A stretch of DNA of 32,000 nt from Flavobacteriaceae bacterium (GTDB lineage Bacteria > Bacteroidota > Bacteroidia > Flavobacteriales > Flavobacteriaceae): the NCBI GenBank assembly GCA_965224465.1, contig OZ245049.1, positions 1,860,001-1,892,000 on the forward strand, in the 5' to 3' direction. The notes beneath the pieces were generated by a model. It saw nothing but the letters and a program-made list of their open reading frames with translations, had not been told where the DNA came from and made no database searches. Positions 9,220-32,000 of the stretch are shown here, in pieces. A program made the position numbers and the translations under genes. Every line of letters starts with the position of its first letter. The first letter of the stretch is position 1.

Positions 9220-9852
9220 ATGAAATCATATAAATACACCTTTTTAACACTTGTCCTACTAATGATTGTTAGCTGTGACAAAAACGACGATATAAGTACA
9301 GCAACTAATTCTTTTGAGAGCAACAATATCTCCTACGACACTCCAAATTGCTATATAGAATTCGATGAATTCACAGACAATAATGCAAGTTTCAATTTGT
9401 TTTTACTCAATGGACGCATGTTTGATAATGATGCCAATGTAAATGGCTCTTCTGGAGATTACTTATTTTCTTTAAACACCAGTAATTTTGTGTTTTACAA
9501 TATTCGTGCAATAGAAAACCCTAGCATTGAAACACCTCAATACCCCAATATTCAAACAGGGATCAATTATATAGGAAGCGACAATGATTCGGTAATTATA
9601 CATGGATTTAGTGTAAACCCTCTCAGCCCTAACTTCGACAGTAATGGCGTTAATTACGGAATGCCCAACGAAGGATCAGGAGTCGTTCACGAGCCTTCAC
9701 CTGGAAGTACAAACACAATCACTATAAACACCTACAGTGTGGATCTTATGGCAAAAACAGGACAGATAGATCTAGATTATCAATTTTTAGATGCCCTTGA
9801 AAATACGATTACAGGACACTATGAAGGAAGTTTTGGTGTCTTCCAAGATTAA
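9220..9852 (+). CDS. Lipoprotein, unknown function
   Basis: Signal peptide with lipobox-like LLMIVSC followed by DKNDD. Asn/Ser-rich. No family recognised. Confidence 0.65.
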   Translation: MKSYKYTFLTLVLLMIVSCDKNDDISTATNSFESNNISYDTPNCYIEFDEFTDNNASFNLFLLNGRMFDNDANVNGSSGDYLFSLNTSNFVFYNIRAIENPSIETPQYPNIQTGINYIGSDNDSVIIHGFSVNPLSPNFDSNGVNYGMPNEGSGVVHEPSPGSTNTITINTYSVDLMAKTGQIDLDYQFLDALENTITGHYEGSFGVFQD

Positions 9853-10262: not shown

Positions 10263-11963
10263 ATGAAATCAAGCATATTATACTTCGCTATTTTTATTTT
10301 CTCAAGCAGCAGTATTCTTTTTGCTCAAGGGAATTCAAAAAAACCAATTCACATCACTGGAAACATTGGGCTTTATTATGACATGTATGATTATTCTGAA
10401 GAAAACCACCCCACTTTTAGGGCTCGTTACCCAGACAACCTATTCCGATTAAATGCAAATGCTACAATCCAATTAGGAAAACACTTTTCCATTCCGTTTG
10501 GCATCAATATTACCAATCAAAAAACACTGTATAATTTACCGAACCTACCCAACGAGAACATCATAGATTATGTACAAAACCCAAAAAACAATATCAGTAT
10601 TCATCCAAAGTACAAATGGGTACAAGCACATATTGGTACACACACACCAGACTATTCACAATTCACTACTGGAGACATCAATATATTTGGAGCAGGAATT
10701 GACATCAATCCAGGGAAATTTATTCTATCCTTCAATTACGGTATATCGCAACGCGCCATAGAACAGGACAGTTTCTTAAATACGGTCGGAGCTTATAAAC
10801 AAACGCTCATGGCAACTAGAATAGGAATCGGAAAAATAGAAGGCTCCAAATTCACCATTAACATTGTAAAAATTAAAGATGACATCACTTCCTTAGTCAC
10901 CATTCCTACGGGAATAAAACCCATAGAAGGCATCACCTTTGCCCCACTTATTGAAGTTAAATTTGGCAAAAAAATATTTTTCGCTACAGAAACAGCAGCA
11001 TCTATTTTTACAAGTAACCTCCTGAACACTTTTGACATTGACAGTGATATTGTAACATCTGTAAAGGACATCATTACTATAAACGCCTCTAGTAAAGGCG
11101 ATTTTTCCCACACATCATCCTTGGAGTGGAAATCAAAAAAATTCACACTTGGAGGTGAAGTAAAATACATAGGCCCTGGGTTTGTACCTGCCGGATTTAG
11201 GAACATTGAGAAAGACATCTTAGATTATAAAATAAAATCCTCCATAAAACTATTCAAAGGAAAAACAAACATCAGCGGAATGTTTGGAATCCGAACAAAC
11301 AACCTTAAGAACACCACCTTACAAAGTACGAAAAGAGTGATAAGTACTATCAATATTTTTACAAAACTCACCAAGAAATTATCTTTAAATGCTAGCTATT
11401 CTAATTTTGGCTTTAATAATAATGAGATTAACAATGTACTTCGTATCGAGATGATTAACAACACGTACAACATATCTCCTTCTTACAAATTTAAGACTTC
11501 TAGCATCAGCCATTTGATACGGTTAAATTGGAACAAAAACGACTTTGATCAATTTGATACTGGCAGCGCCTCTTTTGTGAGTTCTGAATCAGAAAGTTAC
11601 GGAATAAACTACAACCTGTTTTTCAAAAACTTTCCTCTAAATATTAATTTAATGGGACTTCATTTAGACAATCAAACACCCGCTACTACTTTCAATATGA
11701 AAAACTACACCGCTTCTTTTTCTTATAAATTATTTAATAAAAAAATAAAACCTTCCCTTATATTTAATCTCGCCAAGATCTCAAAACCGCCATTTACAAC
11801 AGACAAAAGATTTAGCAGCAAATTTAAATTAACCTATAAAATAAACAAAAAACTACAATTCAAATTCGCTTATAAACTCAACAAATACACATACGGAACA
11901 TCACGTCCAAATGCATTAACAAAAGAACACAGGCTACAGTTTTCGCTATTAAAAAGATTCTAA
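10263..11963 (+). CDS. Predicted outer-membrane beta-barrel protein, unknown family
   Basis: Signal peptide (…SSILFAQ), alternating-hydrophobicity Tyr/Asn/Gly-rich segments throughout, and a C-terminal aromatic residue (…SLLKRF) typical of an OMP beta-signal. Confidence 0.6.
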   Translation: MKSSILYFAIFIFSSSSILFAQGNSKKPIHITGNIGLYYDMYDYSEENHPTFRARYPDNLFRLNANATIQLGKHFSIPFGINITNQKTLYNLPNLPNENIIDYVQNPKNNISIHPKYKWVQAHIGTHTPDYSQFTTGDINIFGAGIDINPGKFILSFNYGISQRAIEQDSFLNTVGAYKQTLMATRIGIGKIEGSKFTINIVKIKDDITSLVTIPTGIKPIEGITFAPLIEVKFGKKIFFATETAASIFTSNLLNTFDIDSDIVTSVKDIITINASSKGDFSHTSSLEWKSKKFTLGGEVKYIGPGFVPAGFRNIEKDILDYKIKSSIKLFKGKTNISGMFGIRTNNLKNTTLQSTKRVISTINIFTKLTKKLSLNASYSNFGFNNNEINNVLRIEMINNTYNISPSYKFKTSSISHLIRLNWNKNDFDQFDTGSASFVSSESESYGINYNLFFKNFPLNINLMGLHLDNQTPATTFNMKNYTASFSYKLFNKKIKPSLIFNLAKISKPPFTTDKRFSSKFKLTYKINKKLQFKFAYKLNKYTYGTSRPNALTKEHRLQFSLLKRF

Positions 11964-12251: not shown

Positions 12252-15200
12252 ATGAAAAGAACACTTCTCCTCCTATTAATATTTGGCTTTTTTTCTAGCC
12301 ATATTAGTGCTCAGATACAAATATCATTAAATGTAGATTCAAACCCTACTCCTGAATTATCAGAATGGGCAAACAGAAACAATTTAGCCATTTTTACAGT
12401 CACCAATACCGATCCAGATTGGGTGGTGGAATACATCTTAAAAGTAGAATTATACAAAGATGGGATTCTTATGTTGGAAACAAATAACAATGTAACTCCA
12501 CAAACACTAGAGATGGGTACTGTTACCTTTTTAGCGGATGAAATAATCCCATACAATGCAATTAATTTTACCAATAATAATTTCCAACAAGCCATCTTAC
12601 AAACGGGGCTATTACCTGCTGGAACCTATTCTTTTTGCGTTAGCATGCTCAAAAGCGATGATTATGCAGTCATTGCAACAGACACTCCAAATCCTGCATG
12701 TCAACCCATGTTAATTACAGATTATCAAATTCCCGAATTAATTATGCCAATAAGTGATGTTTCAATTTCTTCACTATTAGTACCTACTATTAATTTTACG
12801 TGGTCTCCTGTGACACCAGGACCAGACCCAAGTCATTTTTCTGTAGAATACCGCATCCTCGTATCAGAGATATTCAGCAATCAATCATCTGCCAGTCAGG
12901 CATTTCATGTAAACACAGGACTGATAGACGAAGAAGGGCTAACAAGCACGCAATTTATGTGGCCTTCCGATTTAGAAGCTCCAGATGATTTGACAAACTA
13001 TGTATGGAGTGTACAAGCCATCAATACCAATAACAGTTTGCCTATTTTCCAAACAAACAACGGCTTCTCTTCCATTGAAACCTTTACTATAACACCGGCA
13101 AACAATGTGGACGTAGTTGACTGTGAATGTGATGTTGCCAACTTAACACAACCAACTGTAGCTATAATTCAATCTGATTCCATTAATAATCCAAGGAAAT
13201 TAAAGCTAACAAACATACCTCAACTCAAAAACTACCTGATTAACTGCAACACGGTATTTAATGCAAATCCCGCCGATTATACCATAGACATGAGTATTAA
13301 CTGGGACAATGCCCATGACGAGGAAGCAGTTCCTGATGGAGCTACTGTTTTTGAGCATGAATTCAATGCCACCAGTCATGAAATACCTGAAGAAATTTGC
13401 ATCAACTACACCATATACCCAGTATCTACAGGAATTAGTGGTGCACAATGCGAAAACGAAATATGTATAGAGACACCACAGGCATTTTTAGACTTAAACT
13501 TTAGCAATACGCCCACTGCAATTGTAGCGGTTGGAGACACAATAAAAGCTGGATATAATCACGAATTCAACATTCTTGTCTCCCAAGTATCCATAGACAG
13601 TACCAATAATAAAATTACAGGAAAAGGAAACGTTTTTGTAAAATGGCTAGGCGCGAGAGTGGCTGTTCAATTTAATGAAATCACCCTTGACACCACCAGA
13701 AACTTACTTACAGGAAAAATACTTGGAGAATCATACCCTGCTCCTGCTCCAGTATACCCACAAGCTTGGGGAGAAGAAATAATTGCCAATAACAATACAG
13801 CAAATACGACTGCAAACAACATAGCAAACTGGGGAAACAATACTGTTGCTGATGTTATTAATTGGACAAACAGTACGTCTGGAAAAATAGTAACCTGGGT
13901 AAACAACACCGCGGGAACATCGATAAACAGTCCTACAATTGACCCACAAGCACCTATTCCTACAGGCCCATTGACAGATAACACAACACCTGTAAAATTT
14001 CCTTTAGGAGTTAATTTCGCAAACGGAGACCAATTGGCAATCACAGAGATGGTATTTAGACCCAACCTCTCAGAATTTAATCTTGTAGTTGCAAAAAACA
14101 CACCTCCTAGTTGGCAAGCTCCGGGAGAGCCAGCACAACTTATTGGCTTCCTTGCCCGAAATACTAAATTTCACCCAAACAGTGTAGAAACACCTCCTGA
14201 AAGACTAGAGCTTGTAGAAGATGTAAACATTGGAAACATGAACAACAAAATTACTTTTACATTTATAAGTCCCGCAAACTCACCTAATGGATGTTATATT
14301 GAATGGGATGACGATGGGTTTTCACAATTTGGAATAGAACTAGAAAGTTCATTCACAAGAGAATGGTTAATTCCTTCTCCAGATGATGGAACACGATCTA
14401 AAGCAACTTTTGTAAGTACCGTTCAGAACTGGGATGATTTAGTACTGACTGGAAATTTACAAAAATCAGAAATTGTAGACTCCCAAGCCATGACCATTTT
14501 TGCAGGAAATATTTCCTTGGACTTGTCGGATACCATCAACCCTACTAATTTACAATCGGCTTCTGACTTCCCATCCAACTATGCAGGTGATAAAACCATG
14601 CTTTTTAGAGGATTTCACATGGAAGAATTAACCGCAGAAATGCCAGATTGCTGGCAAACAAATAGCAATGGCGTTCCTACTATTTCTATCTACGACATGA
14701 TTATTAACGATACAGGACTTACCATGGTAGCTGAAGCAGTAAATGTAGCAGCTTTTAGAGGGGCAAATGTAGCCGATTTAATTGCAAGTATAGACACTAT
14801 TCATATTGATATCCGAAGCAGTTCCTTTCACGATGCCTATATTAAAGGGAAAATAGGCTTACCTGTAAGCAAAGCAGATTCTATACAAAACCCATTAAAG
14901 TATCACGCCTTATTCACAACAGCGACTCAACCTCCTTCGTTTCAATTGACCATTGAACCCACAGGTCCTATAAAAGCAACTTTATTAAAAGGAGTAATGG
15001 AGCTAGACCCGACTTCAAATATTGTAGCCAATGTTTCTAAAAACCCGAATTACAGCCCTGGAAATAGCAATAGTAAAAAGTACAAAAAAACATTTCATGC
15101 TACTTTAAACGGGAATTTTGTTTGGGATGATGTCAAGTTAGGTCCCGTTAAACATGTGAATATGAACCTTGGGTTTCAAGGAATAGAAATGAATTACAAC

Positions 15201-17927
15201 AATGTTCAACCCAATAATAAATTCAATTTTAATGCAGGAACATGGGCATTTGCAAGTCCTCAGAAATTTTTATCTAACTTTCCTGTTACCATAGAAAATA
15301 TAGCATTTAATCAGAAATCTACAACAGGAAACCAACTCTTGCATGGAGATCTGAACTTTGATGTGATTTTTAATCTATCCGAAGACATTGGAGGACAAAC
15401 AAAATTAGCTGTAGAAATTGCGATAGAAGAAAACCCAAACGGTACAGGTACTGGTAAATTCAAACCCAAATACATAAGTACAAGGATCAATGATATTTCC
15501 ATATACGCGCACTTACCAGCAGTTTCAATAGATGGAACTTTGGAGTTCAGAAACGACCATCCTGTTTATGGAAATGGATTTAAAGGAGAATTAGAAGCGG
15601 CATTTAAAACACCTAATATTGGCATCAGAGCCTTGGCAGAATTTGGAAACACAAATTACCTTAATAACGGAGCAACCTACCGCTATTGGAGAATAGAAGC
15701 AGCAGCAAAATTCCAACCAGGAATACCCTTTTTACCCGGTATTGCATTTTACGGTTTCGGAGGAGGCGCCTTTAGTAATATGGAAGGTTCTCTTGTTGAA
15801 AATCCAACAGACCCAGACACACCGCCCTACTACAGTTTTGAACCAAAAAAAGGGAATTTAGGTTTTCAAGTAGAAGCCACGATTGGTGCAGCAGCAAAAG
15901 TAGATTCTTTTAATGCAGATGTAGGATTGAACGGACAATTTTCAAGCTCTAATGGTTTAATTAATATTGGTTTTACAGGAGATTTTTACATAGGAGGACC
16001 ACTAACACCTCAACACGAAAGAGAAAAAGCACAAATTAAAGGAAGTGTTATCGCTGATTACAATTTCCCTGACAAGCATTTTTTTATGAATGTTGATGCT
16101 ACTATTAACACCGATAAGATAAAAACTTTACCTGGACAACCTGTAAAATTAAACGTAGATATTAACGGAAGTAACAACCGTTGGCATTTTAAATTTGGAG
16201 AGCCAGACGCCTTAAATACGGTGTCAATATTTAATTTTGAACTCTATGAATATTTAATGTTTGGAAATAACATCTCAGCTCCTAGCGGTTTTACAAATAC
16301 TTTTAAAAGTGGATGGGCTTCGGTATTTGACGGAGACCAACCAGGAATCCCAGTAGGATCTGGAGTTAATAACAATTCTGCATTAGGAAAAGGATTTGCT
16401 TTTGGTACAGGTTTCAAATTTGACAAAGAAATTGACTTTCATATTTGGAATGGCTATAATGTAGAAATAGATGTTGCCGCTGGCGCCGAATTAAATTTAA
16501 GTATGATGCAAAAAACAGGCGCCAATTGTGACAACCCTTCTAAACAATTCGGACTCAATGGATGGAGAGCCAATGGTTCTATAGGTTTTTACGGTGCTGT
16601 AGCAGCTGGAGTAAGTAAAGGATCCAAATATTGGCCTTTAATGGACATTAGAGCTGGAGGGTGGTTAGAAGGAAAATTTGTAAACCCTACCTATGTGGCA
16701 GGAGAAATTCGAGGACAAGCAGTTGCTGGACACTTTACGACTAAAATTCATTTTCTAGGAGATTGTAAAAAAGGATGCGGTGCATATCACCTTAAACATT
16801 CCAGACAATGGACATCCTGTAAACACCCTCAGCATCATTATCTAATTGATAAAAGTTTCCAAAAAGACTTTGAGTGGGGCGCTAGTTGTTTAAATAATGC
16901 TGGATACTCAGAACCTGACAACACCAGTAATGATACCTCATTTACACAAGGAGATGCTGCTGAAGATCAATCTCAAAAACTAATAAAATACATACATCCA
17001 ACACCTAGTAACATGATTTATAATTTCCCGGTGACACAGCCTATTTCCATAAAATTTGGACTGAACCCTGAAGAAGTATTTGATGTTGCTGAACAACAAC
17101 AATCTGGAACAATTTTAACAAGAACGTTTAAGTTGGAACGTACCGTATCTCTATTTATAGACAATGCAGACGACGGAAATTACACAAATATATCCGCAAG
17201 CCTTTCTACAGGAAGACGACTATTAAAAAGCACAAATAACATAGGAGAAGAGCTGTATACAGAAACCTCAAACACAATCACTGCAACAGCACAAATGTCT
17301 ACAGCGCTCTTAAGCTCAGAACCAAGTAGTACAGGAACAGCACAGGTAGTAAATATGCAATTAGCCCCAAACCCAACTACTGGTGCAGGAATATTTTCAA
17401 ACAGCCAACTCTTATCAGCTACGAAACAAGAACAAGGAATATTAAGTTTCCCTTCTACATCTACTGGCAGCTCTACTGGCAGCGGATCTTCTAGCGGAAG
17501 CGGCTCCTCTGGCTCTGCGAGTTATGATGATTTACCAGCACCAACACCTCCTGTTATAAATCATTTATCACTAAATAAAAGTTACAAAATAATAGTAGTT
17601 GCTACATTAAAAGAATACAGCAACGAGCAATGGGTGGATGCAAAAAAATCAAATGGTAGCAGTGTTACTGAAACAAAAACAAAGTTTTTCAGAACAGGCC
17701 CTAAAAAAGCCATAAACAATGCCGTATCACGTAAAGAAAACGACTTCAATAAAGAGACTCCAAATGGCAAAAAAACAGCTAGTTCAAGGAAAGCTCTTCC
17801 CGCAAGAAAAACAAGAACCCGTCCTAAAAACAAAGAAATTCTCGAAAAAAATAAGTCGTTTAGAGGAAAGAAAAAAGACAGAAAACGCTCAAAAAAGAAC
17901 GTAAAAACTAATTCCAAAAGAAACTAA
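12252..17927 (+). CDS. Giant secreted protein (1891 aa), unknown function
   Basis: Signal peptide (…SSHISAQ) and an uninterrupted 5.7-kb ORF. Carries a Ser/Gly linker and a Lys/Arg-rich C-terminal tail. I recognised no T9SS C-terminal sorting domain. Confidence 0.75.
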   Translation: MKRTLLLLLIFGFFSSHISAQIQISLNVDSNPTPELSEWANRNNLAIFTVTNTDPDWVVEYILKVELYKDGILMLETNNNVTPQTLEMGTVTFLADEIIPYNAINFTNNNFQQAILQTGLLPAGTYSFCVSMLKSDDYAVIATDTPNPACQPMLITDYQIPELIMPISDVSISSLLVPTINFTWSPVTPGPDPSHFSVEYRILVSEIFSNQSSASQAFHVNTGLIDEEGLTSTQFMWPSDLEAPDDLTNYVWSVQAINTNNSLPIFQTNNGFSSIETFTITPANNVDVVDCECDVANLTQPTVAIIQSDSINNPRKLKLTNIPQLKNYLINCNTVFNANPADYTIDMSINWDNAHDEEAVPDGATVFEHEFNATSHEIPEEICINYTIYPVSTGISGAQCENEICIETPQAFLDLNFSNTPTAIVAVGDTIKAGYNHEFNILVSQVSIDSTNNKITGKGNVFVKWLGARVAVQFNEITLDTTRNLLTGKILGESYPAPAPVYPQAWGEEIIANNNTANTTANNIANWGNNTVADVINWTNSTSGKIVTWVNNTAGTSINSPTIDPQAPIPTGPLTDNTTPVKFPLGVNFANGDQLAITEMVFRPNLSEFNLVVAKNTPPSWQAPGEPAQLIGFLARNTKFHPNSVETPPERLELVEDVNIGNMNNKITFTFISPANSPNGCYIEWDDDGFSQFGIELESSFTREWLIPSPDDGTRSKATFVSTVQNWDDLVLTGNLQKSEIVDSQAMTIFAGNISLDLSDTINPTNLQSASDFPSNYAGDKTMLFRGFHMEELTAEMPDCWQTNSNGVPTISIYDMIINDTGLTMVAEAVNVAAFRGANVADLIASIDTIHIDIRSSSFHDAYIKGKIGLPVSKADSIQNPLKYHALFTTATQPPSFQLTIEPTGPIKATLLKGVMELDPTSNIVANVSKNPNYSPGNSNSKKYKKTFHATLNGNFVWDDVKLGPVKHVNMNLGFQGIEMNYNNVQPNNKFNFNAGTWAFASPQKFLSNFPVTIENIAFNQKSTTGNQLLHGDLNFDVIFNLSEDIGGQTKLAVEIAIEENPNGTGTGKFKPKYISTRINDISIYAHLPAVSIDGTLEFRNDHPVYGNGFKGELEAAFKTPNIGIRALAEFGNTNYLNNGATYRYWRIEAAAKFQPGIPFLPGIAFYGFGGGAFSNMEGSLVENPTDPDTPPYYSFEPKKGNLGFQVEATIGAAAKVDSFNADVGLNGQFSSSNGLINIGFTGDFYIGGPLTPQHEREKAQIKGSVIADYNFPDKHFFMNVDATINTDKIKTLPGQPVKLNVDINGSNNRWHFKFGEPDALNTVSIFNFELYEYLMFGNNISAPSGFTNTFKSGWASVFDGDQPGIPVGSGVNNNSALGKGFAFGTGFKFDKEIDFHIWNGYNVEIDVAAGAELNLSMMQKTGANCDNPSKQFGLNGWRANGSIGFYGAVAAGVSKGSKYWPLMDIRAGGWLEGKFVNPTYVAGEIRGQAVAGHFTTKIHFLGDCKKGCGAYHLKHSRQWTSCKHPQHHYLIDKSFQKDFEWGASCLNNAGYSEPDNTSNDTSFTQGDAAEDQSQKLIKYIHPTPSNMIYNFPVTQPISIKFGLNPEEVFDVAEQQQSGTILTRTFKLERTVSLFIDNADDGNYTNISASLSTGRRLLKSTNNIGEELYTETSNTITATAQMSTALLSSEPSSTGTAQVVNMQLAPNPTTGAGIFSNSQLLSATKQEQGILSFPSTSTGSSTGSGSSSGSGSSGSASYDDLPAPTPPVINHLSLNKSYKIIVVATLKEYSNEQWVDAKKSNGSSVTETKTKFFRTGPKKAINNAVSRKENDFNKETPNGKKTASSRKALPARKTRTRPKNKEILEKNKSFRGKKKDRKRSKKNVKTNSKRN

Positions 17928-23696: not shown

Positions 23697-23968
23697 AGCT
23701 AACCAACAAACAGCCAGTTTATTAATTAATTTTAATTCTTCCAACGCTACACTTTATCAATTCAACTATTGGATTGATACACTTGCCCTTTTTTATTTTT
23801 CATAGTACACGTACTTTTATTTTGAAGCAACATTAACGATGCTCTTTGATACTGATTTCTAAATACATACGATCCAGTAAAAATTTAAATCCGTATACAT
23901 AGAGACATTGGAGTGTCTACATTTGTTGTGACGGTTTTATTAAGCCTATAAATTTATATATTTGAATT

Positions 23969-24253
23969 ATGGGAAGAAAAAAGCATGATAATGAGTTCAA
24001 GGTAATGATAGTAGAACTATTAAAGTCCGGAATGAAATCAAAACAGATTAGTACAGATTACGAGTTGGATGTAAGTATGATATCTCGCTGGAAGCGAGAA
24101 TACGAGATTAAATCGGGTGACTTTTCTAAAAAGAAAGAGTTAACCAATGATGAAGTGGAGCTAAAGGCGTTAAAAAAGGAACTTCGTAACGTAACTATGG
24201 AGCGTGATATATTAAAAAAGGCGGTAGGCATCTTTTCCAAGAGCGACAGATAA
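23969..24253 (+). CDS. IS3-family transposase OrfA (HTH)
   Basis: 94 aa with an HTH and a leucine-zipper-like C-terminus. Ends shortly after the A6G slippery site. Confidence 0.9.
   Translation: MGRKKHDNEFKVMIVELLKSGMKSKQISTDYELDVSMISRWKREYEIKSGDFSKKKELTNDEVELKALKKELRNVTMERDILKKAVGIFSKSDR
24214..24220 (+). promoter_or_regulatory. Programmed -1 ribosomal frameshift site (AAAAAAG) joining OrfA to OrfB
   Basis: AAAAAAG heptamer. Reading on in the -1 frame gives KKGGRHLFQERQIRYKFIFNNGVSFPVEKMCKSMRVSKNAYYHW, the conserved IS3 OrfB N-terminus. The orfB frame is -1 relative to orfA. Confidence 0.8.
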
Positions 24254-24300
24254 GGTATAAATTCATTTTTAATAATGGAGTATCCTTCCCTGTTGAAAAG

Positions 24301-25134
24301 ATGTGTAAATCCATGCGCGTTAGTAAAAACGCATATTATCACTGGGTAAACAATAACGGTTCCAGCGTACAGAATACTGCTAAAGTAGACTTGATGGATA
24401 GGATTACCTATCATTTTATCGAAAGTAAAGAGATCTATGGGAGTCATAGAATTCAAAAAGCATTGGAGCGAGAAGGAGTGTATTATTGCCGTTCTTACGT
24501 GGCGCTGTTGATGAAAGAGATGGGTCTGCGAAGTGTTCTGAAGAAGGCTTTTGTGGTAACTACAGACTCTAAACACGATTATCCTATTGCTAAAAATATA
24601 TTAAACAGAGAGTTTACCAGTTTGAAAATAGGAGATAAATGGGTGTCAGACATCACCTATATACGCGTAAATGATGATTGGAATTACTTAACCACGATAA
24701 TTGATTTAGCTGACAGAAAAGTGGCAGGATGGTCTTTAAGTGAGGACATGACCACCCAAAACACTATTGTAAAAGCGTGGATTGCGGCTAGAAGAACAAG
24801 AGCTATTAATCCAGGGTTTATCTTTCATTCAGACAGAGGAGTGCAATACGCATCTAATAAAATGACTGCTATTTTATATTTTAATCAGAAAATAACACAG
24901 AGCATGAGTAGAAAAGGTAATTGTTGGGATAATGCTGTTGCTGAGAGCTTTTTTAAATCCATAAAGTATGAGTGGCTCTATCGTTTCAAGTACATGTCAT
25001 ATCTGCAATTACACGAGTCGATAAATGAATATATCTCTTGGTACAATATCAAAAGATTACATTCAAGTTTAGGGTATTTATCACCGCTTGAAATGGAAAT
25101 AAAACTAAAAAAGGAAATTAAGAAAGTGGCTTAG
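24301..25134 (+). CDS. IS3-family transposase OrfB (DDE/rve integrase core), probably expressed as an OrfAB fusion from about 24220
   Basis: WVSDITYI…, HSDRGVQYAS, CWDNAVAESFF and YNIKRLHSSLGYLSP are motifs typical of the rve catalytic core. Confidence 0.9.
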   Translation: MCKSMRVSKNAYYHWVNNNGSSVQNTAKVDLMDRITYHFIESKEIYGSHRIQKALEREGVYYCRSYVALLMKEMGLRSVLKKAFVVTTDSKHDYPIAKNILNREFTSLKIGDKWVSDITYIRVNDDWNYLTTIIDLADRKVAGWSLSEDMTTQNTIVKAWIAARRTRAINPGFIFHSDRGVQYASNKMTAILYFNQKITQSMSRKGNCWDNAVAESFFKSIKYEWLYRFKYMSYLQLHESINEYISWYNIKRLHSSLGYLSPLEMEIKLKKEIKKVA

Positions 25135-25142
25135 TAAAATAG

Positions 25143-25622
25143 TCACATATTTATTAGGAACTCCAATAGATGTATTCCATTTCTATTGGATGTTTGAATA
25201 TAAACTGTACTTAATATGAATATCGAGTTGATGTCTTTATGGAAAAGATGAATTACGTCCTGGTAATTATTACCTATTTTCTCCGTAAAAATTAGTTGAA
25301 AAGTAGTATCATAATTGCATTTAAGATGAACTGAATACAATTCATTAAAGTTTTCTAAATTTATTTTTTTTTTGAAAATATGTTCTTTTATTTTAACATT
25401 TAAGTATACATTTTTATCACTGTCTTTTAATAAAGATATTCTTGTGTTTGTATGATCTAGATTGCAAGTTTCTGTAACTTCTTTTTTATTAATCTTTACT
25501 GATTTTTCTTTGAGAACAAGAACTTTATTCGTGATTTTTTCTTTACTTTTTTTACAAGAATAAAAAGCAATCGAAAACAGAATACATACTAATAATATCT
25601 TCAAGCTAAGCGTATTGTTCAT
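25143..25622 (-). CDS. Lipoprotein, candidate immunity protein for the upstream effector fragment; 3' end altered by the IS3 insertion
   Basis: Signal plus lipobox (SIAFYSC). Its ATG directly follows the effector stop (TAAATG). Its last codon and its TGA stop lie in the IS3 right terminal repeat. Confidence 0.55.
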   Translation of the reverse strand: MNNTLSLKILLVCILFSIAFYSCKKSKEKITNKVLVLKEKSVKINKKEVTETCNLDHTNTRISLLKDSDKNVYLNVKIKEHIFKKKINLENFNELYSVHLKCNYDTTFQLIFTEKIGNNYQDVIHLFHKDINSIFILSTVYIQTSNRNGIHLLEFLINM

Positions 25623-26876
25623 TTAAAATTTGTTTTTCATTTTATTATACCTATCCTTCATCTTCGTTCCTCTTCTATTTATTCCATAGTCATCTAATAT
25701 CTCTTTTTCATAATCAATATGATTAGTTCCCCAGTCATTTGGGTTTTTAGAGATTTTGGATGTATGTTTTGTTTTGTCATTTTCCTTTTTATTAAACGCT
25801 TCAACTTCTTTGTTTTTTTTACTAAAAAAATTATCTAAAGATTTACCGAAATCTGCTTTTACATATCCTGGTCTATTTATATGCTGATCTAGAACCGTAG
25901 CTTTTCCTAGTTTAGATTTTAAATAATTTTCTAGCTTATAATTATACCCTTGAGGTTTTATGGGAAGAACTTTGTTCTTCAATCTATCAACGAAGTCCTT
26001 AACTTGTTTAGCTTGAAAATCATTGTCTTTTGAGGCCTTTACAATGGGTTCTAATAGCTTACATTTTAACTTCTTTTTCAATTCACTGCTTTTGAATCCC
26101 TCTCTTATTTTTTTCTTGAGTTCTTTACCTGTTATCTTACTTGAATTAGAAACAGATACATCTTTATAATACATAATACCACTTTCAACCGTCCAACCAC
26201 AATTCTCAAACAATTCTTTATACTTAGCTAGATTATTTTTTTTGAATTCTTGAACTTGAATTGCGAATTCCCCTTTCCCTTTGGAGTTAACTGTTTTTTG
26301 CATAGCTCCAACTGTTAATATTTCACTGTCATGTGATTGAACAGAATCTAATTTACCTTCATTTTCAGACATACATACTAAGATCTCTTTTTCTTCTTTG
26401 GTAACTTTCCCTTTATTTATTAAATCGTCCCAATATTTATAATCTGCTAATTTTTGATTACCCCAGTATACAGGACCATAAATTGACCCATAACTAGTAC
26501 ATTGAAACTTTTTATCAAATTCTTTTCCCCCACAATCACACCCTTTCATCAACTCAAACCAGCCACCATCAAAATCAAGCCAAAAATTCGGGGTTGACCT
26601 TAGGTCAGGTTTTCCATTTTTATTCGCATACCTTCCGTTATAAATTACTTCAATATTATTAAGACTATGAGCATCAACTAATAAAAACATATAAGCTTTT
26701 TTATCTGTTAGTTTCTCAAGTACTTTTTGTTCTTTTTCATTGTCTTTCCCACCTAAGATTACTTTAAAAATTGCCCAGTCAGTAAAATCATCTTTATTTG
26801 TTATGGTTTTATCGTGAGCATACGCCCCAACTTTTGCTTCTGCCCTAGTCCTTTCTCCTTTGTCATGTTGTAACAT
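25623..26876 (-). CDS. Probable 5'-truncated T6SS-associated effector (C-terminal fragment), possibly with a lysozyme-like fold
   Basis: No signal peptide. The frame stays open upstream of the annotated Met, into the IS21-like remnant. Contains a SENEGKLDSVQSHDSEILTVGAMQ segment reminiscent of E…(S/T)…G.MQ lysozyme/SLT-type motifs. Followed by a coupled lipoprotein gene. Confidence 0.45.
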   Translation of the reverse strand: MLQHDKGERTRAEAKVGAYAHDKTITNKDDFTDWAIFKVILGGKDNEKEQKVLEKLTDKKAYMFLLVDAHSLNNIEVIYNGRYANKNGKPDLRSTPNFWLDFDGGWFELMKGCDCGGKEFDKKFQCTSYGSIYGPVYWGNQKLADYKYWDDLINKGKVTKEEKEILVCMSENEGKLDSVQSHDSEILTVGAMQKTVNSKGKGEFAIQVQEFKKNNLAKYKELFENCGWTVESGIMYYKDVSVSNSSKITGKELKKKIREGFKSSELKKKLKCKLLEPIVKASKDNDFQAKQVKDFVDRLKNKVLPIKPQGYNYKLENYLKSKLGKATVLDQHINRPGYVKADFGKSLDNFFSKKNKEVEAFNKKENDKTKHTSKISKNPNDWGTNHIDYEKEILDDYGINRRGTKMKDRYNKMKNKF

Positions 26877-27064
26877 TAAAGCTTTATTGTCACCTTGTAA
26901 TTCGGGGTTATCTGTTTTTCCTTGTTTTCGGAAGCAACGTATTGATCAATGTATTTTTTGACCGTAGTTCTGCTAATTCTTAAATCTTTGGAAATAAATC
27001 GCTGACTTTTACCTTCACGATAATATTGAAGTATTATTTCTTGTTTTGTATACATGCTAATCAT
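26876..27064 (-). pseudogene. N-terminal HTH fragment of an IS21-family-like transposase (IstA-like)
   Basis: MYTKQEIILQYYREGKSQRFISKDLRISRTTVKKYI is a typical IS21-type N-terminal HTH. Only 62 aa remain of a protein that is normally several hundred aa. Confidence 0.55.
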
Positions 27065-27153
27065 ATTTAATCAATATAAGAAACTTATATTGATATGGTT
27101 AAGTGGTATACTTTTCGGTTAATAGGTGGTATGGTTTTCGGTTAACATATACA
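26876..27153 (-). mobile_element. IS21-like element remnant (left end plus start of transposase gene); inner breakpoint uncertain
   Basis: Two 20-bp direct repeats, GTGGTATACTTTTCGGTTAA (27103-27122) and GTGGTATGGTTTTCGGTTAA (27126-27145), lie next to a terminal …ACA (27151-27153, TGT on the element strand). This resembles the multi-repeat ends of IS21-family elements. There is also an 11-bp-arm palindrome at 27070-27094. Confidence 0.5.
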
Positions 27154-27311
27154 AGGAACAGAGAAACAATTAGTAAAACAAATACTTAACAATAAAATAT
27201 ATAAATATTTCATATTATTTTAATTTAGAATATTGTTGTATTTTTTTTCGGGACTGTAAACTCAACTCTGTCTGAATAAAAAAAAGTATTAACTTTATTC
27301 AAACAGAAAAC

Positions 27312-28544
27312 ATGACAAAAGACGAGTTAGCCAACATTGAAAAAAAGGCATTGGATCAATTATTATCAGGAAAAAGTTTATTCGGAAAAGAAGGTGCCTT
27401 TGCTCCTTTAATGAAACAATTTCTTGAGAAAGCATTGGAAGCAGAAATGGAATCACACCTTAGTGAAGAGGAACGTTCTAAAGGGAATAAACGTAATGGA
27501 AAGGGCAAAAAGACTGTTAAAACTAGTATTGGTAGTTTTGAAATAAGCACGCCAGCGGATAGAAATAGTAGTTTCGAGCCTGTTCTGATAAAAAAGCGTC
27601 AAACCATTTTAGCAGATAATTTATCAGATAAGATCATTGGATTATACGGCCTAGGAATGAGCTTACGCGATATTTCTGGTCATATAAAAGAGATGTATGA
27701 TACAGATATATCACACACTGTTTTAAGTCAAATTACAGATAAGATCATACCAGATATAAAACAATGGCAAAGTCGTCCAATAGAACAGATGTACTGCATT
27801 GTTTGGCTTGACGCTATGCATTACAAGGTAAAAGTAGACGGTAAAATACAACACAAAGCACTTTACAATGTTTTAGGAGTAAATAAAGAAGGGATCAAAG
27901 AGGTTTTAGGAATGTATATTTCAGAAAGTGAAGGCGCAAATTTTTGGCTTCAAGTATTGACAGACCTTAATAACAGAGGGCTTAAGGATATCCTAATTGC
28001 CTGTACAGACAACTTAAAAGGGTTTTCAGAAGCTATCTTGAGTGTATTTCCTAAAACACAAATTCAAAAGTGTATTGTTCATCAAATTCGTAATTCTTTA
28101 AAGTATATAGCTTCCAAAGACCAAAAAGAATTTATTCGAGATTTAAAGCTTGTTTACAAGGCTGTTAATAAGGATATTGCTGAGTTGGAGTTATTGAAAT
28201 TAGAAGAAAAATGGGGAGAAAAATACCCTGTAGTTTTAGAAAGTTGGAACCGTAATTGGGAAGAGTTATCTCAGTTTTTTCAGTATACAGAACCTATCAG
28301 AAAAATAATTTACACAACAAATGCAGTAGAAGGTTTTCATAGACAGGTAAGAAAAGTAACTAAAACAAAAGGGGCTTTTACCAGTGATATGGCACTATTA
28401 AAGCTTGTTTACTTAGCAACAAAAAATATCGAAAAAAAATGGACAAACCCTTTACATAATTGGTGCTTGACAATTCAACAATTATATATTAAATTTGAAG
28501 ATCGAATAACGTTGGATTTACATAAAAACGGAAGCAATTCGTGA
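27312..28544 (+). CDS. IS256-family (mutator-type) transposase
   Basis: 410 aa with the characteristic MYCIVWLDAMHYKVK, ACTDNLKGF and IQKCIVHQIRNSLKY motifs. Confidence 0.9.
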   Translation: MTKDELANIEKKALDQLLSGKSLFGKEGAFAPLMKQFLEKALEAEMESHLSEEERSKGNKRNGKGKKTVKTSIGSFEISTPADRNSSFEPVLIKKRQTILADNLSDKIIGLYGLGMSLRDISGHIKEMYDTDISHTVLSQITDKIIPDIKQWQSRPIEQMYCIVWLDAMHYKVKVDGKIQHKALYNVLGVNKEGIKEVLGMYISESEGANFWLQVLTDLNNRGLKDILIACTDNLKGFSEAILSVFPKTQIQKCIVHQIRNSLKYIASKDQKEFIRDLKLVYKAVNKDIAELELLKLEEKWGEKYPVVLESWNRNWEELSQFFQYTEPIRKIIYTTNAVEGFHRQVRKVTKTKGAFTSDMALLKLVYLATKNIEKKWTNPLHNWCLTIQQLYIKFEDRITLDLHKNGSNS

Positions 28545-28563
28545 CGCTAGCCGCTGGGGCTCA

Positions 28564-28624
28564 TTTTAAAATAGTTCGATTTTTAAAGCAGCCTTATGAA
28601 GAGAAAATCGAACTATTTTAAAAC
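28564..28624. repeat. 20-bp perfect inverted repeat inside the IS256 element, downstream of the transposase stop
   Basis: TTTTAAAATAGTTCGATTTT … AAAATCGAACTATTTTAAAA with a 21-nt loop. Confidence 0.7.
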
Positions 28625-28717
28625 GTAGAAAAAAACAAGCAGACAGAGTTTAAATTACACAACCTTTTTTTCCATTGCCATTTGTAGGTGTGCACGAATC
28701 TTGGTTGCTAGGAAACG

Positions 28718-29500
28718 TTAATGTATATCCAATTGTTTTTTAAACTCATCTGTTAAATAAGGCTTTAATTCTTCAAATGAATAAAATACTCTTAAAATTG
28801 AACTAATATTTAGTGCTTCCCAGTTATTATTAATTAAAATTTCTATTCCTGGTTCTTTGTTTTCTTGTGTTATATAGTACCATTGAGGAGTACTATTAAT
28901 TAAATTACTTTCTATTATCATTGTTTTTTTTAGATTAATACCGTTTATTTCAGTATTTAATCTTTTTTTTATCTTTTTATTAATTATAGATATTAACTCC
29001 TGAGAATTATTCTTGAAAATGTTTTTAGCAGAAAACTGATTACCATTTTTTAAGTCGAAATTATAAAAGTATTCTTCAACATGTAAATTTCCAGAATAAA
29101 TCTCTAAACTTAGTTTTAATGATAAGATTGCATCTCTTTTGTAAAAACCAATTTCATAATACGTACTTTCTAAAGGTGAAAGATACTTGCAACATTCTTT
29201 TTGACTATCTTCAATGAATTGCTTAAAGTTTCCTCGTAAATCTTTAGTGTTGTCAAAATTATCGAACCAACTTAATTGATCTTCAACATCTGATAATATT
29301 ATTGAGTTAATTTTTTTATTTCTTTCTTTGTTGTGTAAATTTACATAAGGTAAATTATAAATCCGTTTTATTTTCCCTCTACAAACAATAGAATCCTTAA
29401 TTTTAAATAAAATGTTTTTTTCTTTTAGAATACTTTGACTTTTACAAGAAACGGCAAAAATTAAAACTATTAATATGCTAAGTAATTTATTTTTATTCAT
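28718..29500 (-). CDS. Lipoprotein, candidate immunity protein; DUF4163/DUF3298 (RsiV/PdaC-like) pattern
   Basis: Signal plus lipobox (IFAVSC). Overlaps the effector gene by 8 nt. IKRIYNLPYVNLHN…KKINSIILSDVE and ILSLKLSLEIYSGNLHVEEYFYNFDLKNGNQFSAKNIF resemble the DUF4163 and DUF3298 consensus patterns (…Y.GGAH…n.Dl.tGk…l.dlF). Confidence 0.55.
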   Translation of the reverse strand: MNKNKLLSILIVLIFAVSCKSQSILKEKNILFKIKDSIVCRGKIKRIYNLPYVNLHNKERNKKINSIILSDVEDQLSWFDNFDNTKDLRGNFKQFIEDSQKECCKYLSPLESTYYEIGFYKRDAILSLKLSLEIYSGNLHVEEYFYNFDLKNGNQFSAKNIFKNNSQELISIINKKIKKRLNTEINGINLKKTMIIESNLINSTPQWYYITQENKEPGIEILINNNWEALNISSILRVFYSFEELKPYLTDEFKKQLDIH

Positions 29501-30863
29501 TATTTGTTATTCTTGGAATTAGTTTTAAATCAGAATTAATTTGAAGATTAATACCTTTTGACTTAATATAGTTAATTGGTTTTACTTTTTTTAATTTTTT
29601 TAATAATTTTTCAGCTTCTTTATCTTTTAAATCGATATATGTAGTTACCATTTTCTTTTTTTTTGAATCGTACTCTTTTATTTTTACCTTTTCTTCTTTT
29701 GATATATTTAAAAGTTGATTCTCAATTCTTTTTTTATCGTTTTTATTTCCATTTTTATGAATTTCTTCATAATGTTTATATACTTTAAATCCTTTATCTT
29801 CTTTTGCTTTTAAAGTGTTATCTCGTCGATTTCTTATTCCATTATATCCTCCATTAATTGTATAAGAGGTTAGTTTTATATTGTCTTCATCAGCCCAATC
29901 CACAGTGTATTTTGACTTATATGGATTCCCTTTTATATAGTACCACAGTGCAGATTGTACACCATAAATTACATTATTAGTATCTGCTAAAAGGTCAAAC
30001 TCTCCTTTAAAATCTTTTTTATCAGTCACTTCAGTAAAGTCAACATAACCTTTTGGATCATCAGGAAAAGGATGTTTTTTCCTGTAATTAGAAAATTTCT
30101 TATAGTTAGTCCTCCCTGTCAATTGTTTTATACCTTTACCACAAAACATAAACCCATCTCTTGATAACTCATTGTCATTTTCTAATCTGTCTCCATAAAA
30201 TCTTGAAAAAAGAGGTTTTCTAAATGCTTTATGCTTTTTTAACATGATTTTAAACTTTAAAACTTCTACTTCCCCTCCTTTTTTGTCTTTTATTTTTTCT
30301 TTAACCTCTTTTAATATTATTCTTTTACCAGAATATTTCCCATATAACTTTCTTATGTCTGCTGTTACACTATTATTAACTAACAGGGTTTTGAGTTCAG
30401 CATTTGATTTAGAAATAACTTTGTCATCTTTATTCTTGATTTCAAATATTTTTGATAATTGTTTTTCTAGAGAAGACAAAATTATATTATCAATTATTTG
30501 ATTTCTGTTAAAATACTTTGCACTCAAACTTGAAAATTTATAATTGTGCCCCTCTTTCATGCTCGTAGATTTAAACTCCATCTCAGCAGCAATTTGAGAT
30601 ATAAAATGAGCTTTACGTAAACAAGTATCTAGTTTGTAGTCTTTTCTATATAAATTTAGGTATTCTATAATTTTTTTCGCTAAAGTTTCGTTTGCATTAG
30701 GCTCAATATGTTTAATTTGTTCAATAGTAAATTCTTCCTTACAATATGGACAAAGCTCTGTTGCTTTAATGGTAAGTGGTGTTTCTTTAAATGAAAGTAA
30801 CTCTCCTTTATAATATACTCTTGGTATATAAGTCCTTGATTTAATTTTTTTATCTTCTGCCAT
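29493..30863 (-). CDS. GH19/COG3179-like (predicted chitinase / phage-lysozyme-type) peptidoglycan hydrolase effector
   Basis: No signal peptide. FTIEQIKHIEPNA…LRKAHFISQIAAEMEF…KEG, then FCGKGIKQLTGRTNYKKF and INGGYNGIRNRRDN, match the conserved blocks of COG3179 proteins (AHFLAQ..HES, RGRGxIQLTGRxNY, INGGxNGxxDR). Starts 3 nt after the Hcp stop. Confidence 0.7.
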   Translation of the reverse strand: MAEDKKIKSRTYIPRVYYKGELLSFKETPLTIKATELCPYCKEEFTIEQIKHIEPNANETLAKKIIEYLNLYRKDYKLDTCLRKAHFISQIAAEMEFKSTSMKEGHNYKFSSLSAKYFNRNQIIDNIILSSLEKQLSKIFEIKNKDDKVISKSNAELKTLLVNNSVTADIRKLYGKYSGKRIILKEVKEKIKDKKGGEVEVLKFKIMLKKHKAFRKPLFSRFYGDRLENDNELSRDGFMFCGKGIKQLTGRTNYKKFSNYRKKHPFPDDPKGYVDFTEVTDKKDFKGEFDLLADTNNVIYGVQSALWYYIKGNPYKSKYTVDWADEDNIKLTSYTINGGYNGIRNRRDNTLKAKEDKGFKVYKHYEEIHKNGNKNDKKRIENQLLNISKEEKVKIKEYDSKKKKMVTTYIDLKDKEAEKLLKKLKKVKPINYIKSKGINLQINSDLKLIPRITNNE

Positions 30864-30866
30864 AAT

Positions 30867-31700
30867 TTATCGATTTAATAACACTTCTCCATTTTTGTTA
30901 ACAATTCCTTTAAGTTCTATATTGTTTGTGGGATCATCATCTGCATCTTCTAATACTATTATTAGTTCTTCATCTTCTGCTATATCTTTTACTTTTAAAA
31001 ACAGCTGAGAATTAGAACCAATTTCAGATTCTTTTATAGTGTTTCCTTCTTCATCTCTCCATTCTTTTTTTAGAATTCTTGGTGTTTTTTCAATTTCTTG
31101 CTCTCTCTCTAACACCGTTGGTTCAACTTCTATAAAAGGATCCTCAAACACCCAATTTTCTATTTTTTTAACATCTTTTATTTTAACAGCTCCACACGTT
31201 ATCGCTAAATTAATGTGTAAGGGTAAATTGTCTTGATTGTCAAATTCTTCTGTAAGACCTACAATATAGGCTTTATGGAATTCTACTTTGTACAAGGTTT
31301 TAAACTCATCTCTGTCATAAAATATTAATTCACCGCTAAAACTAGCATTTGGTGAAAACATATAGTGATACAAATCGCTATCAAACCCAGTAGATTCAAA
31401 CATTAAATGGAATGGGCTTTTACGCGTTGTGGTCGTAGGGTTTCCCGTAATATCTTTAAGTTTGTATAATACCAATTACAATCCAAAACAACTGATATAA
31501 ATAGTTTATTTTACGTTCTAGCGTTGTTGAAAAATAGAACCATAGCTAAGGCTATACTTAGATTTTTCGCCTAGCTAAAACAAAAAATAATTCCATTTCT
31601 AAACCGTTACTTGGAAATGTATTTGGTATAAGGTGTATTCTGCTCTTAATAACGTTCTTTCTTTTCCATCTATAATGGCGATGCCTTTAAAACTACTCAT
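30867..31700 (-). pseudogene. tssD: Bacteroidota-type Hcp/TssD-like tube protein with a 94-aa C-terminal extension, interrupted after codon ~25 by a 159-bp MITE
   Basis: 5' fragment at 31631-31700 encodes MSSFKGIAIIDGKERTLLRAEYT(LY). The track ORF (TTG start at 31475) continues LYKLKDITGNPTTTTRKSPFHLMFESTGF…SGELIFYDRDEFKTLYKVEFHKAYIVGLTEEFD…LPLHINLAITCGAVKIKD…ENW. Joined, this follows the TssD pattern F+..+…GKE..+L…Y.L…D..G.P…EST…SG.I.F…D…YI…E.…P+.I…I…KI….NW. Confidence 0.75.
31470..31629. mobile_element. 159-bp MITE-like repeat (copy 3) inserted in the Hcp gene
   Basis: Imperfect terminal inverted repeats CCAATTACAATCC and GGAAATGTATTTGG (reverse complement CCAAATACATTTCC). GTATAA is present at both junctions (31464-31469 and 31626-31631). 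Removing the element and one copy restores an uninterrupted Hcp reading frame. Confidence 0.85.
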
Positions 31701-32000
31701 GGTTTTTCAATTTTTGATTCATCTTTTAATTGGGTACAGCTTTTTTTTAAATCCGTAACTAGCACCCATAATCTCACAATAGCAATCCCGAACATGATGG
31801 TATATCCATATCGTTCACAATACAGGATGGGCTTATTGTTAGGGTGTGCCTATTTTTTTAAACGTAGATCAAATATATAAAATAATGTTATACGCAGCAT
31901 GCTTTTATGGTTAAGCCCCACATTTAGGGGGTAAATCCCCGTAGCACTGTCTAGAAACAGAAAATAATCTTTCGGAGTGCATCTTTTACGCTTATGTAAA

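Follow-up and report, generated by a model that had tools for sequence, protein, structure and literature searches.

Probable remains of two auxiliary T6SS-iii modules with extended Hcp proteins in a Flavobacteriaceae genome

We analysed a 32,000-nt stretch of the genome of a Flavobacteriaceae bacterium (contig OZ245049.1, positions 1,860,001 to 1,892,000; hereafter the window, in whose numbering coordinates are given), and in particular an island at 25143-31700. Most probably, two auxiliary (orphan) modules of a Bacteroidota-type type VI secretion system (T6SS-iii) once stood here in tandem, and the region is what is left of them; each consisted of an extended Hcp (TssD) protein, an effector and a lipoprotein immunity gene. 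Only the first effector and its lipoprotein (effector 1 and lipoprotein 1) are intact today. The island is a real but degraded weapon cassette of a known kind of system, and it may contain new parts, namely the toxin fold of the second effector (effector 2) and an extended Hcp whose docking domain is matched to its effector. An earlier note on this DNA had proposed an Hcp-effector-immunity island of the T6SS type; this reading holds, and the extent of the decay had escaped it.

On the minus strand, the island reads hcp, effector 1, lipoprotein 1, an insertion sequence (IS) of the IS256 family, an IS21-like remnant, a fragment of effector 2, lipoprotein 2 and an IS3-family element. The same order had been given in the earlier note and is borne out by the list of open reading frames (ORFs) and by family scans. 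The parts of the two modules are as follows.

31623-31700, minus strand: 5' fragment of hcp (tssD), codons 1-26 (MSSFKGIAIIDGKERTLLRAEYTLYQ); its translation is the same as the N-terminus of the paralogue P0196 and covers TssD profile positions 1-26
31470-31625, no strand assigned: repeat of 156 nt within hcp, resembling a miniature inverted-repeat transposable element (MITE), with a GTATAA duplication and imperfect terminal inverted repeats
31149-31469, minus strand: rest of the TssD domain of hcp (PF17642, E=1.5e-20, ORF residues 7-109 against profile positions 27-128)
30867-31148, minus strand: Hcp linker (EDPFIEVEPTVLE) and type A C-terminal extension of ~90 aa, conserved in the 223-aa Hcps upstream of effector-1 homologues
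29493-30863, minus strand: effector 1, intact, 456 aa, predicted to be lysozyme-like of the GH19/TseP-C type (PDB and PHROG profile matches), with a carrier-specific N-terminus of ~40 aa
28718-29500, minus strand: lipoprotein 1 (260 aa, intact), a putative immunity protein whose family probably resembles PdaC/RsiV (DUF4163)
25623-26927, minus strand: effector-2 remnant (tblastn with P0062), with a 417-aa ORF from the ATG at 26876 and the toxin domain at residues 113-417
25143-25622, minus strand: lipoprotein 2, a 159-aa ORF cut at about residue 158 by the IS3 element, putative immunity protein to effector 2, recognised from its Tenacibaculum maritimum homologue

The hcp region extends from an ATG at 31700 to a stop at 30867. 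It is joined to effector 1 by TAA-ATT-ATG, effector 1 overlaps lipoprotein 1 by 8 nt (29493-29500), and effector 2 is joined to lipoprotein 2 by TAAATG. These junctions are exactly those described earlier; the translational coupling that had been read into them is suggested by their spacing, and by that only. The AT- and Lys-richness previously reported for the island was confirmed as well, with a GC content of 0.22-0.31 in its genes versus 0.31-0.38 in the housekeeping genes, and a Lys content of 17-18% in both effectors versus 5-13% in the housekeeping genes.

The assignment to T6SS-iii starts from hcp. The ORF listed for this gene (30867-31475) matches the T6SS-iii Hcp family TssD (PF17642) with 73.8 bits (cut-off 25.8; E=1.5e-20), in agreement with the earlier label of a tssD-like gene. 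A combination that would have spoken against the T6SS reading of that note, no core T6SS locus together with no TssD match, is thereby ruled out. The ORF begins at a TTG within the 156-nt repeat and its match begins at profile position 27, the missing 26 residues being encoded in frame at 31700-31623. Four in-frame stops interrupt the Hcp frame between 31700 and 30867 because of a 162-nt insertion, which consists of the repeat and a GTATAA target duplication (31464-31469 and 31626-31631). Deletion of these 162 nt gives EYTLYKLKD, that is ...AEYTLYKLKDITG..., identical to the intact paralogue P0196 of the same genome. The hcp gene of the island is a pseudogene. L001, assembled independently from metagenome data for this organism, contains the insertion as well, which is thus not an assembly error.

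The inserted repeat has the size, dispersal, inverted repeats and target duplication of a MITE. Thirteen of 16 positions agree between its terminal inverted repeats, and within 34 kb it is present in at least three full copies, in addition to several partial ones. Besides the copy in hcp, they lie at 8827-8985 of the window (89% identity), at 1711-1866 of L001, beyond the window end, and, as partial copies, at 171-309, 8785-8825 and 8987-9029. This family was detected by blastn with the insert, a generic repeat search of the island giving only low-complexity AT-rich matches. There was no Rfam match anywhere in the window, including the repeat in hcp, so the insert is not a known RNA or intron. 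The full copy located 3' of the tail-specific protease gene has a partial copy on each side (8785-9029), and the units there are joined head to tail via a 3-nt spacer (…TTGGT ATC ACCAATT…), an arrangement atypical for a MITE. Two further hcp genes of the source genome, P0198 and P0200, start with the same MVLYKLKD, which indicates that this repeat has been inserted into them at the identical position. The repeat-disrupted constant region of hcp has been copied or converted between loci of this genome. We also observed, among P0198, P0200 and P0205, that the paralogues with the repeat at the same codon have differing C-terminal cassettes.

Effector 1 is clearly, as judged from homology, a predicted lysozyme-like peptidoglycan glycoside hydrolase with E94 and E104 as predicted catalytic residues. 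The single sequence has no match in Pfam (E<0.1) or NCBIfam, and Glyco_hydro_19 (PF00182) was found in only one remote member among its homologues (P0060). In PDB searches, the single sequence matches 9MS7 (3e-6) and 8XCL (6e-6). A family profile of 24 homologues retrieves 8XCL at 2e-28, 9MS7 (PWe2 endolysin) at 7e-25 and 4OK7 (SPN1S endolysin) at 9e-16, the matches to GH19-type endolysins spanning 1e-14 to 1e-25, and a PHROG endolysin family matches at 3.5e-18. Homology to the solved GH19-like and TseP-C lysozymes is therefore established. The best solved relative, 8XCL, represents the lysozyme domain at the C-terminus of TseP, which Aeromonas dhakensis uses as a T6SS effector; the Glu dyad of this domain, E654/E663, is located at the active-site groove, and activity is lost in E663 mutants (PMC11893102). 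E94 and E104 are invariant in the 24 homologues and align with the Glu residues of the H-E-S and S-E-N motifs of 8XCL, giving a dyad with the expected spacing of ~9-10 residues. The GH19/COG3179-like character given to effector 1 in the earlier note is thus well supported. Several homologues are named 'predicted chitinase' by their sources, and 11 of 60 among the matches listed, mostly from Flavobacterium, bear an N-terminal PAAR-like DUF4280 domain, a domain described for Fte1 and IglG (PMC5014421). Two further traits of the effector-1 family were noticed: a near-invariant CxxC (residues 38-41) just ahead of the catalytic domain, and an insertion of ~110 aa (residues 105-220) between the catalytic helix and GxGxxQxTG, which is missing from TseP-C and the endolysins.

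Lipoprotein 1 is the putative immunity protein of this pair. Both lipoproteins of the island open with a hydrophobic segment that, by eye, closes in a Cys (C19 in lipoprotein 1, C23 in lipoprotein 2). Cys19 is nearly invariant in the lipoprotein-1 family, and the two genes behind the effectors appear to be lipoproteins as previously claimed. A profile of 11 members of the lipoprotein-1 family matches the uncharacterised protein 3CYG (5.9e-9) and RsiV (5JEN, 1.7e-3). PdaC (PF13739), which we take to be the former DUF4163, matches four of the 11 members (best 1.3e-5), and PF11738 was not seen in searches with this family. The DUF4163/DUF3298 relationship proposed for lipoprotein 1 accordingly finds some support at the level of the family. 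RsiV is an anti-sigma factor that binds lysozyme and serves as its receptor; an RsiV-like lipoprotein 1 would thus suit putative immunity to a lysozyme-like toxin. Homologues of lipoprotein 1 are encoded directly behind homologues of effector 1 in L002, L004, L007-L013, L015 and L045, and a conserved lipoprotein 3' of effector 1 fits a putative effector-immunity pair. Measured against their families, neither effector 1 nor lipoprotein 1 is shortened, and all residues that are invariant in these families are retained.

The second module has lost its own hcp and the beginning of its effector, both attributable to IS21 and IS256 events. Intact homologues of effector 2 are ~555 aa long and carry an N-terminal LysM domain (P0062 from T. 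maritimum, 75% identity), a few being fused to DUF4280 instead. Residues 124-556 of P0062 align by tblastn to 26927-25626. As the homology starts only at residue 124, with IS21-like and IS256 DNA upstream, the ~123 N-terminal residues of effector 2, corresponding to the carrier-specific N-terminus and LysM, have been lost. What is left is mainly a toxin domain of ~300 aa, for which an AlphaFold2 (AF2) model has a predicted local distance difference test score (pLDDT) >90 at residues 121-417 (mean 80 for the whole). Confidently modelled and with no PDB neighbour, this domain may represent a new toxin fold. The model has one match, to an unnamed viral protein in BFVD (E=2.6e-10). A T4-lysozyme/SLT-like identity was considered and rejected: the motif NEG..D..T.GAMQ resembles E11/D20/T26 of T4 lysozyme by eye, but the only Foldseek matches to T4 lysozyme in the PDB had E>4 and a TM-score of ~0.3. 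Three acidic residues of the effector-2 family, E173, D177 and D183, are invariant.

The earlier note had seen both effectors as cell-wall-targeting. This was upheld for effector 1. Effector 2 has no match in Pfam, NCBIfam, PHROG or PDB sequences, and hence no recognisable peptidoglycan-hydrolase domain. Its action on the cell wall is only suggested, by association, by the LysM of its intact homologues and by neighbouring peptidoglycan-hydrolase cassettes; behind extended Hcps with an extension of class B1 (see below), there are indeed cassettes with Amidase_3, GH19-like and PG_binding_1 domains. The toxin domain itself is common to several phyla and probably also to several delivery systems. 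We found it, with differing N-termini, in Pasteurellaceae (Actinobacillus, Aggregatibacter, Rodentibacter), Burkholderia, Chromobacterium and Deefgea (P0126, P0150, P0152, P0159, P0161, P0174, P0178); some of these homologues are named 'calcium-binding protein' by their sources. In a T. maritimum locus (L063, 2983-5760), extra cassettes devoid of an N-terminus follow an intact LysM-effector-2 gene and its immunity gene. They include a 357-aa effector-2-like ORF (61% identity, from query residue 64) and a 329-aa chimera in which an effector-2-like linker is followed by an effector-1-like segment, an arrangement reminiscent of the orphan toxins arrayed at polymorphic toxin loci.

A 314-aa T. maritimum protein, which ends in TPR repeats and is encoded immediately 3' of the effector-2 homologue P0062, shares 53% identity with lipoprotein 2 over its N-terminal half. 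In the window, the lipoprotein-2 frame runs into the IS3 terminal repeat and stops there. Matches of lipoprotein 2 to TssO (E=0.029) and BT3441 (0.011) were far below the cut-offs and were treated as noise. The island can thus no longer be described, as it had been, as working modules that were merely invaded by mobile elements: hcp is a pseudogene, module 2 is devoid of its hcp and effector N-terminus, and lipoprotein 2 is truncated.

The gene order of extended Hcp, effector 1 and lipoprotein 1 is kept in L002, L003, L005-L007, L009 and L010. Intact Hcps located upstream of effector-1 homologues are 223 aa long and consist of the TssD domain, the linker and a C-terminal extension of ~90 aa, which we call type A. 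Intact LysM-containing homologues of effector 2 are directly preceded by an extended TssD of 230-236 aa with an extension of a different, though related, kind (type B), as seen in T. maritimum (partial), two metagenome-assembled genomes of Flavobacteriia and Aquimarina. The presence in relatives of a separate extended Hcp for each effector family indicates that the window formerly held two complete modules, each with its Hcp, and not a single hcp serving both pairs. In the sole context of this kind with Pfam-annotated flanks (L069, the same as L006), no T6SS core gene was found within 10 kb.

Altogether, an extended TssD lies directly upstream of effector homologues in more than 15 loci, and both toxin families include fusions to the PAAR-like DUF4280, which ties them to T6SS carriers. 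This bears on the idea that the genes have nothing to do with T6SS and are prophage endolysin-like or housekeeping hydrolases next to unrelated lipoproteins, or the cargo of another contractile injection system with a TssD-like tube. It could draw on the fact that the other PDB and PHROG relatives of effector 1 are phage endolysins, that the sole structural relative of effector 2 is a viral protein, and that homologues of effector 2 occur in Pasteurellaceae, in which we know of no T6SS. However, genes for phage structural proteins, holins or integrases are absent from the vicinity of the island, the upstream gene scores well above the cut-off for a TssD family specific to Bacteroidota, and effector 1 has its best solved relative in a validated T6SS effector domain. 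Together with the DUF4280 fusions and the conserved downstream lipoprotein, which fits an effector-immunity pair, these data make such an origin highly improbable.

We therefore retain the reading of two T6SS-iii modules, in which the least familiar part is the C-terminal extension of Hcp. It has no match in Pfam or NCBIfam. A profile of the extension retrieves 360 representative clusters, most of which are Hcps of ~230 aa; the others include Tox-PAAR-like proteins, one TssD with two copies of the extension, and the N-termini of toxins (DUF6402; M23 plus phage lysozyme). PAAR-like proteins of ~285 aa with a type A-like extension are also encoded upstream of effector-1 homologues, either directly (L032) or with immunity-like genes in between (L008, L036). 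In a close metagenomic relative, the same constant TssD region precedes four kinds of 3' end. The first has no extension (134-139 aa). The second is extension B1, followed by effectors that start with MAGFVVTPENTLNIQHRRVLNAYFA and continue with an effector-2-type toxin, a GH19-like domain or Amidase_3; L072 has a B1-like extension, yet a different effector N-terminus and a PG_binding_1 domain. The third is extension B2, followed by effectors starting with DQRTFMGTVSF. The fourth is a directly fused toxin, in a protein of 587 aa in L079 (2542-4305) and in a 5'-cut copy of 534 aa in L080 (3482-5086). In these 'evolved' Hcps, the toxin part of ~450 aa is followed by repeat-rich immunity-like genes (YYNTGQLKQEGSYENGKKQGEW repeats).

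A similar switch occurs within the source genome, where four extended Hcps are near-identical through ...WVFEDPFIEVEPTV(L/I)E (...EDPFIEVEPTV(L/I)E) and diverge abruptly beyond it. The reverse is seen in P0208, whose TssD domain is divergent (47% identity) and whose type A extension is near-identical. Among 25 non-redundant carrier/effector pairs, the similarity of the extensions correlates with that of effector residues 1-40 (Mantel r=0.81) and less with that of the toxin part (r=0.51). Pairs exist in which the same extension and N-terminus go with unrelated toxins, and there are many in which the same toxin goes with different extensions and N-termini. On the strength of these comparisons, the ~90-aa extension of Hcp is probably an effector-docking module. 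It is tempting to go further and to suggest a portable docking extension that recognises the first ~40 residues of the effector, with extension, N-terminus, toxin and immunity gene swapped as one cassette, through recombination at the conserved linker DPF-x-EV-x-PTVLE that follows a constant TssD domain, and with effector 2 carrying a new toxin fold. We put this wider proposal forward tentatively, as plausible but somewhat less likely to be right in full than wrong.

The mechanism that we envisage is inferred from relatives. The C-terminal, beta-rich domain of ~90 aa of Hcp, held on a conserved linker, would dock the first ~40 residues of its large cognate effector (52-62 kDa), and the loaded Hcp would enter the tube and be fired into a neighbouring cell. 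Effector 1, with its TseP-C/GH19-type domain and E94/E104, would then cut the glycan strands of peptidoglycan in the periplasm of the target, and lipoprotein 1, with a putative RsiV/PdaC-like fold, would protect sister cells. An intact effector 2 would consist of a carrier-specific N-terminus, LysM and the toxin domain, and would presumably also act in the periplasm.

Several points speak against this interpretation, in part or as a whole. The copy of hcp in the island, being a pseudogene, is unable to load anything. Taken by itself, lipoprotein 1 of the window has no Pfam match, and both the lipoprotein status of the putative immunity proteins and the lack of a signal peptide in the effectors were judged by eye. 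Because the extension is encoded next to the effector N-terminus, their co-variation could reflect linkage and not binding. An AF2 model of the extension, from an alignment of 11 sequences, is unreliable (pLDDT 54), and the resemblance of the extension to the beta-rich region that follows LysM in homologues of effector 2 is weak and suggestive only (hhalign 37%, P=3.6e-4, 34 columns). The effector-2 model has no significant Foldseek match in the PDB (E>1), and the effector-2 profile gave a negative result against T4 lysozyme (hhalign probability 0.2%). Finally, as already stated in the earlier note, core T6SS genes are missing from the window: no T6SS family was matched outside the island among ORFs of at least 100 aa other than those nested antisense in larger genes.

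This last result, as well as the disruption of hcp, effector 2 and lipoprotein 2, would also be expected if the island were a dead relic, in which IS and MITE expansion accompanied the loss, complete or in progress, of the T6SS, effector 1 and lipoprotein 1 being simply not yet hit, or lipoprotein 1 being kept as orphan immunity. The state of the paralogues can be read both ways. At least six extended-Hcp genes are present on the same 5.24-Mb contig, of which three are 5'-cut (P0184, P0198, P0205), in a genome with many IS256 copies and in a population in which the variant strain L001 has a further IS256 in lipoprotein 2. Nevertheless, the three others (P0196, P0204, P0208) have full-length ORFs, as do at least two effector-1 paralogues on this contig (P0021, P0186), and the full length of effector 1 and lipoprotein 1 with all their family-invariant residues is not what a relic would suggest. 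We consider this explanation unlikely, and rather see in the island a degraded cassette of auxiliary modules in which effector 1 and lipoprotein 1 could still be usable, but only if effector 1 is loaded in trans by P0208, a type A Hcp paralogue that is intact.

The mobile elements that have broken up the island, other than the repeat in hcp, are the following.

27249-28610, plus strand: IS256-family insertion sequence with its transposase at 27312-28544 (PF00872, E=5e-98), the ends being taken from a second copy in L001
26930-27248, minus strand: IS21-like 5' remnant, with a 62-aa helix-turn-helix (HTH) ORF (26876-27064; HTH Pfam matches) that reads out of frame into effector-2 sequence
23927-25147, plus strand: IS3-family element with orfA (23969-24253) and orfB (24301-25134), matching Pfam HTH_Tnp_1, rve and rve_3

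The assignment of the remnant to IS21, proposed earlier, is in keeping with its HTH and with two direct repeats seen by eye at ~27095-27150, upstream of the ORF; its NCBIfam match (E=2.8e-6) remains below threshold, with 27 bits against a cut-off of 160. The inverted terminal repeats of the IS3 element, TGTGACGGTTTTATTAAGC and TGTGACTATTTTACTAAGC, were read directly from the sequence. At 28564-28623, two perfectly inverted 20-nt arms separated by a 20-nt loop straddle the right end of IS256 (28610), so that part of the outer arm lies in flanking DNA. The IS256 transposase has six near-identical full-length variants in the source genome, which suggests an IS expansion. Over 25333-32000, the window shares 99.97% identity with the metagenome contig L001 (ERZ25073217), in which lipoprotein 2 is cut by IS256 at window position 25333 (L001 position 8631). 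The difference between L001 and the window is a strain-level IS polymorphism, and the interruption of lipoprotein 2 by different IS in the two sequences indicates recent IS activity in the population.

Elsewhere in the window, the Pfam matches of other ORFs are to ComEC, LpxB, SurE, a tail-specific protease, a histidine kinase with a LytTR regulator, and similar proteins. SurE and LpxB of the source lineage are singletons at 90% identity, which points to a lineage with no close sequenced relative. A 1891-aa ORF on the plus strand (12252-17927) and its neighbours at 10263-11963 (566 aa) and 9220-9852 (210 aa) have no Pfam match; these three ORFs are located just upstream of a 700-aa fn3-containing ORF and the histidine kinase/LytTR regulator pair. 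A scan for sigma-70 promoters and terminators remained at chance level, the model being ill-suited to Bacteroidota promoters.

Orphan Hcp-effector-immunity modules are known in T6SS biology, and the island itself is ordinary in this respect. It illustrates how rapidly T6SS arsenals can decay in a genome rich in IS elements and MITEs. Our analysis also defines two families: a TseP-C-like lysozyme with its RsiV/PdaC-like putative immunity protein, and a widespread toxin domain with no match to a known fold. Protein clusters that fall under the extended-Hcp scheme number in the hundreds and come from marine and fish-pathogenic Flavobacteriia, for instance T. maritimum and Aquimarina. How Hcp chooses and carries effectors that exceed its 40-Å lumen is a question addressed only lately, in Bacteroides fragilis, via Hcp2-Hcp3 heterohexamers. 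If the docking proposal is true, a swappable docking domain on a single Hcp would solve this problem more simply, in a way that is testable and possibly engineerable, and the swapping of extension and effector cassettes would be to Hcp what C-terminal cassette exchange is to Rhs and contact-dependent inhibition (CDI) polymorphic toxins.

Among known systems, the modules are reminiscent of the minor-Hcp cassettes of Bacteroidales GA2 and GA3 (B. fragilis Hcp2-Hcp3; Bte1, Bfe1, the LysM effector), which also belong to T6SS-iii with Hcps of the TssD family (PF17642) and in which an effector-specific Hcp gene lies directly 5' of the effector-immunity pair. In B. fragilis, effector-specific minor Hcps, forming lineage-specific Hcp2-Hcp3 rings, recognise an N-terminal effector module (PMC13035841, PMC13213661, PMC13402684). 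The toxin domains behind this loading module are variable, and we propose a parallel here. In contrast to the Hcp2-Hcp3 heterohexamer, the modules of the present family would use a single Hcp with an additional C-terminal domain of ~90 aa, whose docking role is read from sequence comparisons; they are also located outside any T6SS locus, in Flavobacteriia-like genomes, and their effectors are larger (52-62 kDa). In having an hcp away from the core locus, followed by toxin and immunity genes, they are similar to the orphan hcp modules of Proteobacteria and of Bacteroidales GA2.

C-terminal extensions of Hcps have been described as Hcp-ET (PMC4714493), and true Hcp-toxin fusions with the same constant region exist in close relatives (L079 and the 5'-cut L080). 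Unlike in Hcp-ET, the extension in the window is a small conserved domain with the toxin encoded separately, and the TssD family differs from proteobacterial Hcp. Effector 1 itself is similar to TseP-C (8XCL) and to the GH19-type endolysins (SPN1S 4OK7, PWe1/PWe2): its E94/E104 align with E654/E663 of TseP, and the motifs G-x-G-x-x-Q-x-T-G and N-G-G are shared. It differs from TseP-C by the ~110-aa insertion and the conserved CxxC, and lacks the amidase half of TseP; moreover, TseP is carried by VgrG2, whereas effector 1 is encoded behind Hcp. The homologues of effectors 1 and 2 that bear an N-terminal DUF4280 in Flavobacterium and Chryseobacterium recall Fte1 (Fjoh_3275) of Flavobacterium johnsoniae, a likeness that concerns the DUF4280 domain; the effectors of the window, unlike such fusions, have no DUF4280. 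The lipoprotein-1 family, in turn, has a weak similarity to RsiV/PdaC (1.7e-3 to RsiV), and the member in the window is a lipoprotein and not an anti-sigma factor.

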